Positions 4,885 through 46,155 of a stretch of 64,000 nt of DNA are shown here, piece by piece (the first letter of the stretch is position 1; every line of letters starts with the position of its first letter). The position numbers were made by a program, and so were the translations under genes. This stretch comes from Octopus vulgaris (lineage: Eukaryota): NCBI GenBank assembly GCA_951406725.2, contig OX597820.1:5208001-5272000 (forward strand), given 5' to 3'. The notes under the pieces are model-generated. The model searched no databases. It was not told the origin of the DNA and worked only from the letters and a program-made list of their open reading frames with translations.

Positions 4885-5078
4885 GAATTTACAAAAAAAA
4901 ACAACCAAAAGGTGAAGACACGTGTGTAAACAACAAACGAGTGCATTAGTTTTACGCTCGGGAAAGTGAGAAAGTCGTTTACGTTTCGAGCCTACGCTCT
5001 TCAGCAGAAAGGAACACGAAATAATAAACAGAGAAAATAAAAAAACGAAAGCTTTAGTAGCTAGCGGTCAATCATGGT
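4885..5078 (-). mobile_element. Short non-coding PLE-like terminal fragment with minimal hammerhead-like motif
   Basis: Homologous to 43757-43958 (+); abuts a TA/TATG microsatellite; minus strand reads CTGCTGA-A-GAGC-gtag-GCTC-GAAACGTA. Confidence 0.55.
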
Positions 5079-30059: not shown

Positions 30060-30264
30060 TAACAATTAAAAAATTAAATTTAGAAAAATTAAAAGAAAAG
30101 TTTTTTTAAAGGAATATTTGTATAGTGTTCAAATATAAGTGGCATTTTCCTTGTTTCTGCCTGTCTCTGTCTCTCCTGTTTACACTTTTCCAGGAAATCT
30201 ACGCTCCCAGCTTAGTTTTTCTAATGCTCATTGCTTAGTTTTTCTTGGAGGGCTGGCCGTGATC

Positions 30265-30327
30265 TAGTAATCTCAAGATTAATCAGCCGAAATTACTACG
30301 ATGATCCGGTTCTTGACTGAAGACTGA
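30265..30327 (+). ncRNA. Candidate non-circularly permuted (pseudoknotted) hammerhead
   Basis: TAGTAA-TC-TCAAGA-ttaatcagcc-GAAA-TTACTA-cgatgatccggt-TCTTGA-CTGAAGA. Confidence 0.62.
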
Positions 30328-30712
30328 GGGTTTCGAATGTCCTGTCCGTGTTTATTGTATCGTCTTCTAAGAATTATACGTTCTTGTCTATGTTGTATTT
30401 TTCTACATACCTTAACATATATTCCAGGCGCCACGTACCCTCTTAACATTAATGTGAGCACATATTCTTAATAACTGGTACGACTCTTTGTTTGTCTCTC
30501 TCTCTCTCTCACTTTTACTTGATCTGTCCCCTTCTCTCTCTACTCATCCTCTTTTTCTCTTCTCTTTCCTCTGATTCTTTGGTCTAATCTTCCACTACCC
30601 TCCTAATTCTTTGTCTCGCTCTGCACTCACAGGTCAATCTTCGACACCCATCCCTTCTCCTCTCTGATTCCTTCTTTCTCTCTCTTCTCTCTCTTTGTTG
30701 CGTTTGTCCCTC

Positions 30713-30749
<37 letters not shown>

Positions 30750-31136
30750 TCCGTTGCTTCTCTTTCTTTTCTTTTCTCTCTTCTCTGTCACGTGACTGCT
30801 GGCCGAAATCTGCCTTTCAGCTTCTGACCATCGTCGTGTTAACATCGTTGTTTTTCGTCCGCCGCTATAGGCATCGCCGATAAGGCTCCTTTCCTTGCGC
30901 CAGAGAAAAAATTTGTTTGCTTGTTATCAGTCGTAAGACACTTGTTGTTGTTTTCACCGTTAATGCTTCTGTATTTCATGTTTCTGTATTCCATTATTTT
31001 TTTGTTTTTTTATATTCGTCCCTTTTGCTGTCCTGGTGTCCGTATGCATTCGATCCTTCTTCCAGGAAATCTACGCTCCCAGCTTAGTTTTTCTAATGCT
31101 CGTTGCTTAGTTTTTCTTGGAGGGCTGGCCGTGATC

Positions 31137-31199
31137 TAGTAATCTCAAGATTAATCAGCCGAAATTACTACGATGATCCGGTTCTTGACTGAAGACTGA
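31137..31199 (+). ncRNA. Candidate non-circularly permuted hammerhead, second direct-repeat copy
   Basis: Identical to 30265-30327. Confidence 0.62.
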
Positions 31200-31316
31200 G
31201 GGTTTCAGAATGTCCTGTCCGTGTTTATTGTATCGTCTTCTAAGAGTTATACGTTCTTGTCCATGTTGTATTTTTCTACATACCTTAATATATATACATA
31301 CATATATATATATGTA

Positions 31317-34100: not shown

Positions 34101-35372
34101 CGGGGTCAGGCAAAATGATCTGACACATTTGTAGGCTAAATAAAAGGCATTGTTTTTCGTTTCTTTTTCAGTTGCTGCCATGAATTGGACTGGTGAGCAT
34201 CGCGCTTTCATTGTGGAAACGTTTATCAAAACAAACGATTCTGTAACTGTAACACAAAGAGCGTTCCGTTTGCACTTCAATCTTGGTAGACATGATCCCG
34301 TACCAGCTCGAAACACGATCTTGTTATGGGTTACCAACTTCAGAGCTACTGGATCTGCATTGAAACGAAAATCAACCGGCCGACCTCGCACCGCCAGAAC
34401 TCCAGAAAATGTGGCAGCAGTAAGAGCTTCAGTTCAACAGTCTCCACGCCGTTCCACATTTAAACGCGCCCAGGCTCTTAGACTTTCCGAAAGAAGTTTG
34501 CGAAGAATTCTTCACAATGATCTTCAAATGCATCCATACAAAATGATGTTGGCACAAGAACTCAGCGAAAGAGACATTGAAACTCGCAGAGCATTGTGTT
34601 TGGAAATTCAACAACATGTCCCCCATGCAGCAGTTGTGTTGTTGAGTGACGAGGCACATTTTCACCTGTGTGGCACAGTGAATAAGCAAAACTTCAGATA
34701 CTGGGCCGAGAACAACCCTCGTGAGCTGCATGAACGCCCTTTGCATTGTCCTCGGGTGACTGTATGGTGTGCTGTGGCAGAATTCGGTATATGGGGTCCG
34801 GACTTCTTCGAAGAAGACAACGTTACAGTGACTGTGAACTCTGATCGATATTGTGAGATGCTAGAGACTTTTCTCAGACCAAAATTGAATATGCTCCACG
34901 ATATGGACAATGTTTGGTTTCAACAGGATGGGGCAACAGCCCACACTTCTCGGCGTGCGATGGGGATTTTGAGGAATATGTTCCCTGGTCATTTGATCTC
35001 ATTGCGTGGTGACATCGGTTGGCCCGCCCGTTCACCTGATTTAAATCCTGTGCGATTTTTACTCTGGGGATATCTCAAGTCAAAGGTATACATTAATCGC
35101 CCTCGATCTATTGAACAACTTAAAGATGCAATTCGTCAAGAAATTACTGCCATTCCACATGAAATGACCCGCCGAGTTATTGACAACTTTCGTGAACGTC
35201 TTCGACAGTGTGTGGACAATAATGGATCCCATTTGACTGATTTAATTTTAAAACATAATGAAACAAAATGGCATTATATGTACTTTTCAAAAATAAAAAC
35301 ACTTTTTGTTTCTTTACTTCATTTGCCTTTTACTTAACCTACACATTTGTCAGATCATTTTGCCTGACCCTG
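34101..35372 (+). mobile_element. Tc1/mariner superfamily transposon, DD41D (rosa/Visitor-type)
   Basis: About 49-bp imperfect TIRs (CGGGGTCAGGCAAAATGATCTGACA... / ...TGTCAGATCATTTTGCCTGACCCTG), TA at 34099-34100 and 35373-35374, 1272 bp long. Confidence 0.95.
34180..35337 (+). CDS. DD41D-type transposase, probably defective in this copy
   Basis: ATG at 34180 (MNWTGEHRAF); motifs LSDEAHF, FQQDGATAH, WPARSPDLNP; 41 residues separate D2 from the expected D3 position, which here reads R; C-terminus reads through into the TIR. Confidence 0.88.
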   Translation: MNWTGEHRAFIVETFIKTNDSVTVTQRAFRLHFNLGRHDPVPARNTILLWVTNFRATGSALKRKSTGRPRTARTPENVAAVRASVQQSPRRSTFKRAQALRLSERSLRRILHNDLQMHPYKMMLAQELSERDIETRRALCLEIQQHVPHAAVVLLSDEAHFHLCGTVNKQNFRYWAENNPRELHERPLHCPRVTVWCAVAEFGIWGPDFFEEDNVTVTVNSDRYCEMLETFLRPKLNMLHDMDNVWFQQDGATAHTSRRAMGILRNMFPGHLISLRGDIGWPARSPDLNPVRFLLWGYLKSKVYINRPRSIEQLKDAIRQEITAIPHEMTRRVIDNFRERLRQCVDNNGSHLTDLILKHNETKWHYMYFSKIKTLFVSLLHLPFT

Positions 35373-35729: not shown

Positions 35730-35788
35730 CTTTCCTCAGTCAAGTCCCAGAAGTCATGACCGTTTCGAGCAGTTACACTTGAGACGGT
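35730..35788 (-). ncRNA. Candidate non-circularly permuted hammerhead
   Basis: Minus strand ACCG-TC-TCAAGT-gtaactgctc-GAAA-CGGT-catgacttctggg-ACTTGA-CTGAGGA. Confidence 0.62.
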
Positions 35789-36563: not shown

Positions 36564-36609
36564 CCACTACAATTGTTTCATGTCTCTTCAAAGGACATTC
36601 ATCAGGTGG
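36564..36609 (-). ncRNA. Type I minimal hammerhead ribozyme in PLE 3' region
   Basis: Minus strand CCAC-CTGATGA-ATGTC-ctttgaaga-GACAT-GAAA-CAATTG-TA-GTGG; complete canonical core, same strand as and about 194 nt downstream of the GIY-YIG stop. Confidence 0.85.
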
Positions 36610-36802: not shown

Positions 36803-37635
36803 TTATTTATCATGAAACTTATTATATAGGTAAAGTAACCTATGTCTGCATTTTATTTTGCGCTCTTCACCTGTATTAAGTAAATTATCATACTTATAAA
36901 ATAAAATTTCCTTAAACTCATTAGAGCATAAATAACAAAAATTCGCTCCTATAGTATATGATTTGGTTTTACAAATTATTTCCCAAGATAAATTATAATT
37001 AATATTTTGTGATTTAAGTCTCCAAATGTACTTACTAAGTCCAGTGGAGTTGATTAAGTTTTTATTTTTAAAAGAATTCAGATGTTGTGCGATTCTTAAT
37101 TTTATTTTAGAGGAAGTAGACCCTATATAAATCGCTTTTGGGTAATTATTATTCTTAAAGTTATTATCATGTAATGTAACTATACATTTATACACTACAT
37201 CGTTAATATCGCATTTATTATTTAATTTACATTTAGATTTATCTCTACAAGTACAATTAATATATGTCTTATCTTTATTATCTTTATTATTAGTATTATT
37301 AAATAATTTATTTTTATAAAAATTATTCAGTTTAAATTTATTAAATGAAGAAATAATGTTACCTACATTATTAGTGGTGGAATAATCTACTCCAAAATTA
37401 TTACTAGAGAAAATATTTTTTTATTTACGATTGTCTCTAATAAATAGTTCGATAATATCTAAAATCTCTTTAATAATATTCGTTTTAACTTGATCACCAT
37501 AAGGAACTATTAGCCAAATTTTATTCTTATTTACCTTATTATTATAACTGTCATTATTATTATTATTGTATTTATAATTCTTTATCATATTAAAATTATT
37601 ATCAGAATTATATCTATGTACAGCATTTAAGGAAT
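36803..37635 (-). pseudogene. Penelope-like retroelement (Naiad-like) linker plus GIY-YIG endonuclease remnant, 5'-truncated
   Basis: One frame with a single premature TAA (37421-37423): [16 protein letters not shown]...KNIF...YS..N, CTCRDKSKCKLNNKC, VVYKC...IYIGST...RIAQH..SF, TGLSKYIWRLK, CYLC..E, LLN...CRH. Confidence 0.85.
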
Positions 37636-39689: not shown

Positions 39690-40400
39690 ATACCAGTTAT
39701 ACAATAGGGTCTTTTCAATCCAGAAGTTACTGTACAAGAGTGTACAAAGGAGCCAGGACTAAGTACAAAGCCATGATAGAGAGTGATGCTAAGGGGATCT
39801 ACCCGCTGTACAGGAGTAAATCCTGGAACAACCGGTAATAAGATAAATAAGTCTTATAGTTGGTATGACAACCCCCCCACCCAAAGGTGTCATGTTTGTT
39901 GATGCTATCCCTGGCAGCAAACTAGAACTTTTTAGAAAAAACATTAAGTAAGGCTAATATACGAATTAAAGTAGTACAGAGGCCTAGTGCCCCTTTAAAA
40001 AATCCCTGATCTGCAATACCTATCCCTTTGGTAAGTACCCCTGTACGGAGAACATTTGTGTTGTATGCAGGATGAACCCACAGGTTAATTGTAAGGTAAG
40101 GACTATTAGTGTATAGCTTACGATGTACTGAAGGACGGTGCAGAAACATGACAATCACTTAAAATGGAGAGACTGCACGCAGCATAGGGGAGCATATAGG
40201 TGAACATCGGTGAGAGCTCAATGAAGGGAAACACTCGTCAGTGCTCTACCAACATGCTCAGGCAGAAACATGGATGCTCCATTAATAGCATAGAGGTTAA
40301 AGTACTATCGGCACAGAACTGACACGACACTTGGACAGTTTCTAGAGGCTACACACAGCAATAGATAGAACGATCCTCCGTAGAAAACATGAATGGAACA
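39690..40400 (+). pseudogene. Heavily decayed Penelope-like RT-thumb/GIY-YIG remnant
   Basis: Fragments across frameshifts: PLYRSKSWN, VMFVDAIPGSKL, IKVVQRP, C....CVVC......C, VYSLRC, GETARSIGEHIGEH. Confidence 0.68.
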
Positions 40401-40894
40401 GTAACACCCACCCCCACACCATATTACTAAAGACAGTAGGGATGAGAAGAGAGATGGAAAAAATAAAAACCGTAAATAATACACAGAAACATGCAGGGTT
40501 ATACACACACAATACACATTTATGCACTTACCTGTGATACTTATGAGAAATAGAGATAGATGTATAAAAAAGATATTAATAATGAGTGAATAAATAAATA
40601 TATAGATACATGAATAGATAAATATATAAATATATCTGTTACATATCTGTGATAGATATAAGACTTAGACATAGATACAGTAGCACAAACACACATGAAA
40701 TTTCATGGACGGCCATAACAATGTCAACAACACAAGTAACAACGTCAGCAGTAACGGCGGTGCCAACGACAGAAATAACAACAACCACGACAAGAACAAC
40801 TACCACGATGGCCACACCGTGGGCGAACACACATACACAGAGGAACATAGGAACTGTACCATTTTTTGGGGGGTGGTCTTAAGACAGCAGCAAC

Positions 40895-41165
40895 AACACC
40901 TAAAGCTCCACGAGGCTCCGGCAGGGGATAGTGGCGACCCCTGTTGTACTCTTTCGCTCCAACTTTCTCTCACTCTTTCTTCCTGTTTCTTGTCCCCGAC
41001 TTCCTACGCAACCGCTGAGCCTGGATGCGCATTCATCCATCCGTCAATGCTCTCGGTGTCGGGGGTTGACCTGCTTTCTCTTCTGCGGGTCTTACAAATA
41101 GCAAAGGATCACGTTTCGGACTTCTCCCATCTTGCGAGCTCTGGGACGAAGACCGTTCGCTCAAC
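40895..41165 (+). mobile_element. SINE family S3, headless body/tail
   Basis: Matches the reverse complement of 62598-62850. Confidence 0.85.
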
Positions 41166-41575
41166 AAACAAACAAACATACAAACAGCAGCAGCACAATG
41201 GGGTGAGAGGATGGGGCTGATGAGGGGAAGGCCATGATGTTGCTAAAAACTATGACACACACAAGCATACACACACATACACACACGCACGGACAAGGAC
41301 ACAAATGCATGCGCACATAAGGATACACATCTTAGAAGAACAGAATGGAGTAAATGTAACAAGAACACACATGAAAACGAAAAATGTTGCTGAAGAGGTC
41401 GCAGATGTGTGACGAAAGAGTTCGAGACAATGGACATAAGTTAAAATAAGAAATGTAATAAACGAGTTGAGAAAAATATATAGTGCGTCTGATTATTTGG
41501 CAATAAAAGACAAAAAATATCTGTTTCAACACACAATTTCACATCAGGAATCTTGCAAAACCAACTGATAAAAAA

Positions 41576-41610
<35 letters not shown>

Positions 41611-41667
41611 TGTATGTATGTATATGTATATGTATATATATATGTATATATATGTTATGTATATATA

Positions 41668-41743
<76 letters not shown>

Positions 41744-41744
41744 T

Positions 41745-41802
<58 letters not shown>

Positions 41803-41803
<1 letters not shown>

Positions 41804-42590
41804 CCAAAAATGGAACAAGAACGCAACAAACGACAATAAGACATCCAGACAGACAACGGGAAGACGGGCAGAAAAAGTAACAAAAGGACGGACAGGACAA
41901 AACAAGATCGGGCTATTCATGGCTTTCTCTCATCAGTCAAGTTTCCAGATTAGTCTTACAGTTTCGGCTTGTTACACTTGAGACTGTTCAAATCTGGCCG
42001 GATCCAAAAACCTAAGCGAAGAGCATGAAATATTTTGGGAGAACGCAAGCGAATGTGGGCGATAACAAAGGCCTAAAATTTAAAAAAACCCTCAAAAATG
42101 AAGAAAATATTACTCAGTTACAAATACAAGCAACGAGAAAATAACAACAGGTGTCTTTGGACTAATCGAGACGAATCAAGTTGAGCTGGTGTGTGTGTGG
42201 AGTGAAGGCCTTGAGGCAGGAACATAGATGAACATATGAGATGAAAGTCAGGAGAAAGGGATAAGGGATGAGTCGTGTCTGGCAGTCGAGCCAAGAAAGT
42301 AAGATCATGCTTGGCCGAACACCGATCACGTGAAAGGAAAGGAGGGTGGTAGGGGGCAGAAGGATTGAAGAATCAGGGGGAAGACGAGAAAGAGAAAAAA
42401 ATCAAGAGGACATGGAGAAGGTACAAGGGAGATAAACGAGGGAAAATAGGTAGATTAAAGAAAGAGAAGGGCAAGAAACGTGAAGGAGGGGAAGCGAGTA
42501 AAAAAGTAGAAAAGAAAGAAGAAAGTATGGGGAGGGAGTACTAAAAGAAGGAATATAAAAAAGTGGTACAGAATTTAGATATATACTTAT
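41803..42590 (-). mobile_element. Non-coding element carrying a permuted hammerhead near its (TA)n-abutting end
   Basis: Shares the CT-rich tract, TCACGTGA, AAGACACCTGTTGTT block and ribozyme motif with 30480-31288 and 35608-35990. Confidence 0.6.
41929..41987 (-). ncRNA. Candidate non-circularly permuted hammerhead (fully canonical core nucleotides)
   Basis: Minus strand ACAG-TC-TCAAGT-gtaacaagcC-GAAA-CTGT-aagactaatctggaa-ACTTGA-CTGATGA-G. Confidence 0.68.
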
Positions 42591-42836
42591 GTACAAGGTG
42601 AGCAAAAGTGTACGTACGCCGCTTTATGTGTTATAAATCCCCCCAAAACGGAACATGAACGCAACAGACGACAATAAAACACCCGGACAGACGATAGAAA
42701 GACGAAGAGGAAAAACAACAAAAGGTTGGACAGGAAAAGCAATGAAAAGATGAACAGGACAAAAAAAGGACGGGCTATTCGTGGCCTTCTATTATCAGTC
42801 AAGTTTCTAGATATACACATATACGTGCATATGCAC

Positions 42837-42887
<51 letters not shown>

Positions 42888-42895
42888 TATATAAT

Positions 42896-43713
42896 ATATA
42901 ATATATTAATAAATAAAATAAAACATATGCATATATATATACATATATGTACGTACCTACCTCTACATGTACATATACACGCATATATGAGTACAGGACA
43001 CCAAAAGGACGTCGAACACAATGAGAAACGAAAACATAGACACAAACCAAAGGAACTGAACATTTATTTAAAAACAGCAAAAAAATAGAGTACAGGACAA
43101 TTAACACAAAGAAAAAAACCCTTCTTCAGTCGCTAAAGGTTTCATCTACTCTACGTTTCGAAGGATAAAAGCGAGACGTATCTTCGACAAGAAAACTTTC
43201 CTTCCTGCGAAAAGCAAATCAATTAAAATTCTGAGATCTTTTCGCAGATGGGTAAAAAATGGTAACAGGACAGTAACGACAGTACAAATTGTAAACAGTA
43301 AAAGACAGGACAAGGAAAAACAAGATAAGAAGGGCTGTTGACGCCGAACGAAAAAAAGTATTGCAAACGCAGAATTTTTTGTGGACGACGAGCGGAGCAA
43401 AAAGAATGTCGTCCATTACCTTGAGAGAGAGAGAGTGAAGAATGAGAGAGAGGAAGAGACAAGTTAAGTAGAGGAAAAGGAAAACAAAGAATGAAGGCTG
43501 AGAAAGGGATGGAACAGAAAGGTTAAGAGTGCGCGTGAGAGTTAATATCAAGAACAAAAAACTTGATATAAAGAACAATCTTAAATAAGTGGGTGCGTGC
43601 GTTTCATCATATAATATATTAATAAATAAAATAAAACATATGCATATATATAAACATATATGTACGTACCTACCTCTACATGTACATATACACGCATATA
43701 TGAGTCCAGGACA

Positions 43714-43717
<4 letters not shown>
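42896..43717 (-). mobile_element. Non-coding element bounded by 109-bp direct repeats
   Basis: 42896-43004 and 43609-43717 are near-identical (offset 713). Confidence 0.75.
43119..43180 (-). ncRNA. Candidate non-circularly permuted hammerhead, divergent subfamily
   Basis: Minus strand TACG-TC-TCGCT-tttatccttc-GAAA-CGTA-gagtagatgaaaccttt-AGCGA-CTGAAGA-AGGG. Confidence 0.68.
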
Positions 43718-43756
<39 letters not shown>

Positions 43757-43826
43757 GTGAGGACGCCATGATAGATCGTTAGCTCCTACTGGCATTTTTT
43801 TCTCTCCTTGTTTTTTTTCTGTGTAT

Positions 43827-43862
43827 CTTTCTGTCGAAGAGCATAGGCTCGAAACGTAAAAG
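43827..43862 (+). ncRNA. Minimal hammerhead-like motif with CUGUCGA core
   Basis: CTTT-CTGTCGA-A-GAGC-atag-GCTC-GAAAC-GTA-AAAG. Confidence 0.45.
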
Positions 43863-43955
43863 ACTTTTTCTATTCTTGAGCGCTATACTAATACATTTGT
43901 GTGTTTGTACTCCACCTGCCTTCGTCTTTTGTTTATTTTTGTAAACTTACTTTCC

Positions 43956-43989
<34 letters not shown>

Positions 43990-46155
43990 GCATATGTATG
44001 CATATACATACGCACAAACTTATACTCACGTACACACACACATATACATAGAAGCGTGGTGTATGTGTGTGTTGTGTGTTTGGCGATTCTTCGTAGTTCG
44101 ACGTCGAGGATTCAGTTGCTTGACCAACTTAATTACCTGTGACTGAATTCACGAGTGAAGTGGTTGTGTATTCCACAGATACGTGTGCCTCTAATATGAC
44201 TCTCAAGCAGAGTCAGCATCATGCAGTGTCTGCCATAGCTGTGCATTTGCATTGCAAGTCTCATCCATCAGATAGGTTTCCGGACAGTTTCCGTCAACAC
44301 AACGACACTGACTCTCGGCGCAGACGCATCAAGTCGATGACCGACTGATTGTGAAACGAATTCCTTAATCTCGTATCCATATTTTTGCCAGGGCCTGCGT
44401 TATTTCTATAAAGGATGAACTTCTTTTAAAAATAGAAACGTGCATGTATTTCTCCATGTTGTCATAATTAATTTATTCATTAATACATGACCACCCCTCC
44501 AGATATTTGAGGAAGGTCCTGGCTTTTCAAATAATATTAGCGTCTCTGAGTGAATCCACCTAGATTTTCTTTCTGTGGTTCTGAATCTGACATCCAAATT
44601 CTACGATGCGTAACATTTCCTGAATTTAAGATAACATTTTATTCTCTTCTGAACGATGCCTGTTAACCATAATTAAGATCTCTGTAAAAGACAAACTGCT
44701 ATAAAGATATCAAACCATTCCACACTATTATGAGCTTTGTCTTTTACAGTTGTTGCACCAGTGTAATCTTGGTGTGCGCGGCGTCAAAAGCCGTTTCGTT
44801 TTTATGGCTTCCTTATTGGCTGTTACAGATCAGGAGACAAACACCCCAAACACTAAAAGAGAATTGAGGAAAAAAAAAGACGAACAACGTAAGACAGGCA
44901 CGTTTTACACCTCCCTGCATTTGCTGCTTGATGAATCTGGAGATAATACTTTCAGAGGCATTGTGTTTCGTGTTCAAGTGTTGCCTTAATTATCCAACCA
45001 AGATATCTCACGTTTATACTATGTACTTTATGTACTCAGTTAGATTACATTTTACGACCTCGCATCGTCTTTTTTCTTGCTTTTCTTCAATATTCTTGCA
45101 TGCAGAAAAACTTTTTGACACTACAGCAATTTCTACACTCTTCTGACGTCATATGCCTCTATGCCACACACACACACACACACACGCACTCACACTTTCT
45201 CTCTGGTGGGCCTCGCCCTCCGTTCTGAGGAATCGGCACGAGCGAGCGACACACATACGTTAGCCGTTATTTGTTCATCTGAATACCAGATGATAACAGA
45301 ACCGAGTTCGTTCCTTCTTCTCATACATCACCACTAGTTAGGTTTCATTGACACGAATACACATCATCATCATCATCATCTTCTTCTTCTTCTTCTTCTT
45401 CTTCTTCTTCTTCTTCTTCTTCTTCTTCTTCTTCTTCTCCTCCTCCTCCTCCTCCTCCTTCTTCTTCTTCTTCTTCTTCTTCTTCTTCTTCTTCTTCTTC
45501 TACACACACACACACATATGCCATCTCGTATATGTACGCTTATACCAACATGCATACAAATACGGACCACACACACACACACGTACACACACACGTACAC
45601 ACACACGTACACACACACGTACACACACACGTACACACACACACACATACACACACACACACGTATACACACACACACGTACACACACATGTTAAAGCGA
45701 TGGCAAGTCAATATAAGATTATATTGTCTCAGTTTTCAAATTTTATTGTTGTTTAGACCATAAAAAACAACTTGGCGTGGAAACTTAGATTTCCTATTTC
45801 GAATCGTTATCGCGCAGCCTGTGATAAAACACCGATTGGTACCAACATTAACAGGCACCCCATATACACCTGCAGACACCCTCTCTCAATCTCTTTACCA
45901 ACCTCACACTAACACCCACGGACACCCTTTCCCTCAGCACGTTTGTTTTTCATTCTCTGCTTCGGTATCTCGTTCACACACAAGCGTCTATGTATGTGTG
46001 CATTTGTATGTGTGTGTGTGTTTGTGTGTATGTATGAGTATGTGTGTATATACATATATATGTGTGTGTGTGTATATATATATATATGTGTGTGTGTATG
46101 TGTGTGTGTGTATGTGTGTGTGTGTGTATGTGTGTGTATTAATAATTATAACGAC

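Follow-up and report, generated by a model that had tools for sequence, protein, structure and literature searches.

The minus strand at positions 43119 to 43180 of the window, by which we mean the whole 64,000-nucleotide stretch of Octopus vulgaris contig OX597820.1 that was analysed, carries the blocks of a hammerhead ribozyme in the order cut site, GAAA, CUGANGA (S-G-C). Judged on its sequence, this motif is a type-SGC, non-circular permutation of the hammerhead, as in Eckert 2023 (PMC10085705); statements on this and the other papers cited by identifier refer to the parts of them that were consulted. The features of the motif, in 5′ to 3′ order, are as follows.

43181 to 43196, minus strand: 5′ arm of the predicted helix III extension, with the GAA loop strand (duplex and fold predictions)
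43175 to 43180, minus strand: 5′ half of block S, with helix III strand UACGU (43180-43176) and C17 at 43175 (GUC)
Between 43175 and 43174, minus strand: predicted cut, placed by analogy and by the pile-up of 5′ ends
43170 to 43174, minus strand: 3′ half of block S, stem I strand UCGCU
43160 to 43169, minus strand: 10-nt linker, whose last 3-4 nt, (C)UUC, form the 11.x strand of stem II
43152 to 43159, minus strand: block G, with GAAA (43159-43156) and helix III strand ACGUA (43156-43152)
43135 to 43151, minus strand: 17-nt G-to-C connector, with the AGUA loop strand and the 3′ arm of the predicted helix III extension
43123 to 43134, minus strand: block C, with stem I strand AGCGA (43134-43130) and core CUGAAGA (43129-43123)
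43119 to 43122, minus strand: extra A (43122) after A9, then GGG (43121-43119), a strand of stem II

All of the elements that a preliminary description had assigned to this site lie on the minus strand where it had placed them. The block order is S, G, C, as in type SGC, and the CUGANGA core, GAAA, and UH with U16.1-A15.1 are all present, their invariance across subfamilies being due in part to pattern selection. Stem II is closed by G10.1-C11.1 and comprises 3 bp, two of which are G.U pairs; most relatives have a fourth G. A competing 7-bp helix (-7.7 kcal/mol) could sequester G8/A9 in this copy.

The preliminary description regarded this copy as covariation evidence against the copy at 41929, with both stems replaced and the core retained. 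Between the two copies three pairs are changed in stem I and three in stem III, all still paired, and their flanks are indeed barely alignable, as BLAST (word 7, E<0.01) gives no match between the flanked copies. GAAA and the core are kept, but the core of the 41929 copy is CUGAUGA rather than CUGAAGA, and the 10-nt linker is retained in length and not in sequence, the length itself being 10 nt at 41929 only if 6 bp are assigned to stem I. With 75-82% identity to its best relatives, the 41929 copy is old. Because the flanks of their groups do not align, the two copies alone do not prove homologous covariation; the claim holds over the 17 subfamilies described below.

Pairing of the stems across 17 subfamilies

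Copies were kept for comparison if they had C before GAAA, at least 6/8 stem pairs and a microsatellite-free upstream region, which left 167. By inspection, 34 of 38 clusters were merged into 17 subfamilies, five of which rest on one or two copies; the singletons L162, L182, L213 and L215 were excluded, L182 having no stem II. Across the 17 subfamilies, 98/102 cells of stem I and 65/68 cells of stem III are paired, whereas the strand-swap null averages 65 and 36; these counts are inflated because the copies were selected for at least 6/8 pairs formed, and the strand-swap and shuffle nulls ignore the relatedness of the subfamilies. The unselected outer pairs of stems I and III form in 14/17 subfamilies each. 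When one natural copy per subfamily was counted, 86.9% were paired (covariation score 0.564, with 0/500 shuffles as high) and slid partners used as a control gave 35-51%, in an alignment of the 17 copies that has misplaced gaps in helix III of B/C/D. Stems I and III of the motif are thus supported by covariation that is partly built in by selection, and the earlier proposal that structure rather than sequence is being conserved now extends from two copies to 17 subfamilies.

Stem II lay outside the selection. With one extra base after A9, pairing holds in 43/44 of its cells across the 11 A/F subfamilies (p=0.003), with a two-sided change at the fourth pair, making the suggested GGG/UUC pairing after an extra A the best of five registers in this group; the rejected registers, with 0, 2 or 5 extra nt or with YC unpaired, gave 29, 33, 12 and 28 of 44. 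The six B/C/D subfamilies require five extra nt before stem II can pair (20/24, p=0.14), and their consensuses show five purine-rich nt between A9 and the GG of stem II. By eye, no conserved stem I-II helix was seen in the 17 subfamily consensuses.

Block spacings are narrow, at 14-16 nt from S to G and mostly 23-26 nt from G to C in the 17 subfamilies. Among 30 copies of family A, conservation of the core does not clearly exceed that of the flanks (5/420 vs 137/7500), a weak contrast that is expected because copies decay after insertion. A G at +3 is invariant in 17/17 subfamily representatives.

Abundance and the repeat that carries the motif

A strict descriptor permitting all six block orders returned six matches in the window, five in S-G-C order (30268+, 31140+, 35732-, 41929- and 43122-) and one in type I order (36564-36609-). 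In 60 randomly placed 10-kb stretches of the genome (600 kb) this descriptor returned 1 SGC, 5 CGS and 1 SCG match, and in 8 shuffles of these 600 kb it returned 0 SGC matches. The four further S-G-C copies are listed here.

41929 to 41986, minus strand: SGC motif of the older subfamily B, with a K-turn-like loop in helix III
35732 to 35787, minus strand: SGC motif of the older subfamily D
30268 to 30324, plus strand: SGC motif of the young subfamily C, first of a tandem pair, in the element at 30188-31295
31140 to 31196, plus strand: SGC motif of subfamily C, second of the tandem pair, a descriptor match

Over the genome searched (2.8 Gb in 227 contigs), a GAAA-then-CUGANGA pattern matched 8,825 times, against 170 for its control; the canonical block order at the same spacing gave 417 matches and its control 126. 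DNA searches with four window copies returned 2,508, 1,837, 1,736 and 2,153 first-look candidates. Rfam gave no hammerhead family among 68 matches at E<=10 for 40800-44200, and microsatellite noise among the matches listed (150 of 275) for the whole window. An exact 23-mer had no match in viral contigs, nor had a degenerate pattern in metagenome contigs.

The copy at 43119-43180 lies in a family A insertion with the following parts.

42898 to 43717, minus strand: whole family A insertion, 820 nt, between (TA)n tracts (monomer, 873 nt)
43611 to 43717, minus strand: terminal direct repeat, first copy, ~107 nt, a partial tandem
42898 to 43004, minus strand: second copy of the direct repeat, ending at the fixed 3′ end of family A (+273/276 from the cut)

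This insertion is ~160 nt shorter than a monomer plus the repeat, and the best 40 relatives of the 43119-43180 copy are 95-98% identical to it. Monomers measure 873 nt in family A and 896 nt in family C; the carrier is a non-coding tandem repeat with one hammerhead per unit, as non-LTR retrozymes are. Copies have variable 5′ ends, partial tandems and (TA)n flanks, and their 3′ ends are fixed relative to the predicted cut, at +273/276 in most family A copies and at +149 in family C. Three family A copies end at +319, resembling the tail described for Penelope-like elements (PLEs; PMC11167929), and two copies (L231 and L290) have inverted 5′ junctions, a PLE feature (bioRxiv 2021.04.23.441226). 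The fixed 3′ end, optional tail, partial tandems, inverted 5′ junctions and microsatellite targets are together the insertion features of a PLE, and the SGC-bearing repeat is likely a jumping element in an animal genome. Contigs from four runs guessed to be RNA cover the element, and are informative on neither its strand nor its ends.

Within the small sample of loci examined there was no autonomous PLE sharing ends or ribozyme with the repeat; PLE peptides occurred in these loci without being linked to an SGC motif, and no ORF adjoins families F3 and F8. Family F3 comprises 1,156 candidates that are 98-100% identical. At two of its loci (L313:400-2000 and L314) the SGC motif, its stem II broken, lies inside a larger young composite repeat without an ORF, and the motif may have been amplified in this family as a passenger.

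Several other elements share the window. A type I-like hammerhead at 36564-36609 on the minus strand (CUGAUGA, 5-bp stem II, GAAAC...GUA) ends on (TA)n and lies ~190 nt downstream, on the same strand, of a 205-aa frame (36803-37420) that by eye is GIY-YIG-like; together they read as the putative 3′ terminus of a Penelope-like element. At ~4975-5004 (minus strand) and ~43830-43860 (plus strand) there is a minimal type I hammerhead repeat whose stem II is very short, the core of the second copy being changed. The broken frame at 39737-40411 (plus strand) is 36% identical to the endonuclease-like frame of locus L127 and is probably a PLE remnant, and a 397-aa frame at 34144-35337 (plus strand) resembles a Tc1/mariner transposase by eye. 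Adjoining the family A element, at 42641-42812 on the minus strand, is a 5′-truncated subfamily B copy with the core CUGAUAA that begins just before stem I. Elsewhere in the genome, two type I hammerheads on the same strand, 3.76 kb apart (G000:C3:64018478 and 64022240), mark a candidate full-length PLE.

Fold, cleavage and alternative readings

In most subfamilies the predicted duplex of helix III continues beyond an internal loop and stops 0-4 nt from stem I; from the known shape of the hammerhead, a monomer would therefore need a sharp bend at this point. In the predicted fold of 3/4 window copies, helix III and its extension are present, closing a local 15-nt loop. For the four window copies, minimum free energy folding, a model without pseudoknots, gave no significant result (z -0.64 to 0.25). 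The internal loop itself differs between groups. In 8/11 A/F subfamilies, including the 43119-43180 copy, it is a GAA/AGUA loop, the signature of loop E or sarcin-ricin motifs. Four of the six B/C/D subfamily consensuses (B, D, C3 and C4), and one C2 copy, have a loop exactly at the end of helix III that fits the K-turn consensus, in which two helices are separated by a 3-nt bulge and the tandem G.A/A.G pairs that follow it (reviewed in PMC4316175); the likeness is a sequence match, with bulges and helices that differ. There was no such fit in family C or in the A/F subfamilies (0/11), the 43119-43180 copy among them.

Very probably the motif is an SGC hammerhead in a PLE-dependent repeat, acting either in cis or as a dimer, and we consider it probable that it cleaves in cis. 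The dimer, which is unlikely in our view, would be domain-swapped and restricted to tandem transcripts, with S and C of one monomer pairing with the G of its neighbour in a classical knot-free topology that would protect monomers or circles from cleavage. The carrier elements do form tandems, an unkinked monomer hardly has room for a predicted helix III extension that stops 0-4 nt from stem I, the A/F loop misses the K-turn consensus, and animal retrozyme and PLE hammerheads often act as dimers (PMC4209133, PMC7229834). Against this, the local loop closed by helix III and its extension and the tight S-G and G-C spacings suit a compact cis fold, and in Eckert 2023 (PMC10085705) five type-SGC candidates cleaved at the predicted site as single constructs in vitro.

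The positions at which genomic copies begin bear on cleavage. For a first sample, a pattern starting at the core was used and 60 consecutive listed places were sampled; 39/60 copies read through the region and 21 begin inside it. Ten of these 21 5′ ends fall 0-13 nt after the predicted cut (p=6e-5), at a rate per 100 nt at risk of 1.44 in 0..+13 vs 0.29 downstream and 0.18 upstream, a contrast that is conservative because two of the six upstream events are, by eye, internal deletions. For family C, where the 5′-most member at each of the first 20 listed sites was taken, 9/20 copies read through and 7/11 5′ ends lie in 0..+15 (p=6e-4; rates of 2.87 vs 0.53 and 0.23), with one further end scored at -3 that is probably at 0. 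The two samples are independent and their pooled p is 6e-8. Since copies tend to begin just after the predicted cut, the RNA of the element likely cuts itself.

These ends would have another origin if the fold were kept for protein binding or as a reverse transcriptase (RT) stop without cleaving, and arose by RT stalling or by (TA)n microhomology. Such a reading would accommodate the weak stem II, the competing 7-bp helix, the spread of 5′ ends across 0-15 nt instead of one base, and the poor cleavage of metazoan PLE minimal hammerheads in vitro (PMC4209133). However, an RT must displace all 3′ partner strands before it reaches the linker, so a structural stall is expected 3′ of GAAA, where ends are 5-fold rarer (p=0.003); the AT-rich upstream region is richer in microhomology, yet has the lowest 5′-end rate; and UH is correctly placed in 17/17 subfamilies, partly through selection. 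Cleavage is thus the simpler reading of the pile-up, and we regard a non-cleaving fold as improbable, slightly more so than the dimer. Least credible by far is the competitor named in the preliminary description, a minimal type I dimer cutting at the GUA after GAAAC, which would use the palindromic ACGU and, as core, the upstream UCGAAGA, and which we rejected: although the 43119-43180 copy has that palindrome and that core-like sequence and minimal type I motifs occur elsewhere in the window, no CUGANGA lies within 30 nt upstream of GAAA in any of the 17 subfamilies, the downstream stem I reaches at most 3/5 pairs in any of them, the palindrome and GUA are lost in most, and 5′ ends cluster upstream of GAAA, not after it.

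With a cis-cleaving SGC hammerhead, the S, G and C blocks would fold into a pseudoknotted ribozyme predicted to cut the repeat's own RNA after GUC (43175/43174), or in family C after AUC, and the purine-rich loop in the extended helix III would bend the strand back to stem I, as the permuted order requires. Tandem or read-through transcripts would be cut into monomers of ~870 nt, some of which probably become circular by ligation. An RT/GIY-YIG protein of Penelope-like type, provided in trans, would then prime at a fixed internal site and copy the RNA into (TA)n; linear cut RNA would yield copies that stop at the cut, and circular or uncut RNA would yield read-through and partial-tandem copies.

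On balance, and with somewhat less assurance than for cis cleavage, we favour the view that these copies form an animal retrozyme lineage whose hammerhead is pseudoknotted and non-circularly permuted, a lineage of at least 17 subfamilies and some 9,000 chromosomal copies or more, in which a kink in helix III routes the strand, the cut is recorded in genomic 5′ ends, and the whole is invisible to type I-III descriptors. Genome surveys that use such descriptors would have overlooked the SGC class, and some Penelope-like clades reported to be hammerhead-free may therefore carry it. The subfamilies also constitute a natural mutational series for the folding of a permuted knot.

Comparison with known hammerhead systems

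Two groups of mobile hammerheads in animals resemble the octopus repeat. The non-LTR retrozymes (PMC7229834; bioRxiv 10.64898/2026.07.22.740005) are likewise non-coding repeats, tandem or partially so, in which each monomer has one hammerhead and for which PLE mobilisation via circular RNA has been proposed; their hammerheads are of type I and their monomers ~300 bp, whereas here the order is SGC and monomers are 873-896 nt. The SGC repeat thus appears to work like a retrozyme but departs in block order from the published type I definition. The minimal hammerheads of PLE pseudo-LTRs (PMC4209133) share the extra nucleotide between A9 and G10.1, the G10.1-C11.1 pair, the many divergent families per genome and the PLE-type insertion features. 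They are of type I, with a tiny palindromic helix III and a need for dimers; in the octopus repeat helix III is 5-6 bp, extended and, in most subfamilies, non-palindromic, and there is no attached ORF. An anole PLE inserted in vitro without needing hammerhead cleavage, and none of the reads terminated at the cut (PMC11167929). The pile-up of 5′ ends at the predicted cut provides in-genome evidence of a hammerhead shaping retrotransposition templates, a point left open by the PLE literature.

The closest relatives in form are the 583 type-SGC sequences of Eckert 2023 (PMC10085705), found in soil, spruce and freshwater metatranscriptome contigs and linked to hairpin ribozymes. Like HRIMA-1 and its variants in that work, the octopus motif has the S-G-C order, an intact core, stems I-III arranged as pseudoknots, a short S-G linker and room for an extra nucleotide after A9. 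It differs in having a variable N7, an extra base that is in most cases A, a weak stem II and a G-C connector that is predicted to fold back into a long, internally looped helix III; SGC-3 required four helices, of which the one between stems I and II was not seen here by eye. The published descriptor required CUGAUGA(U)G and a connector of <=15 nt, with an extra base after A9 allowed, and would therefore miss the 43119-43180 copy (CUGAAGAAG, 17 nt).

Searching the consulted part of the Eckert 2023 supplement (PMC10085705) for the words 'octopus' and 'metazoa' found neither, and no report of an animal SGC ribozyme was found in the literature searched, most subscription papers being beyond its reach. 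Within that literature, SGC hammerheads had been reported only from environmental RNA. Unlike the RNAs of Eckert 2023, the type seen in the octopus window is chromosomal and present in thousands of copies of a likely retroelement in an animal; a permutation that in 2023 was a rare find in environmental RNAs, their hosts unknown, thereby gains a host and a probable role.
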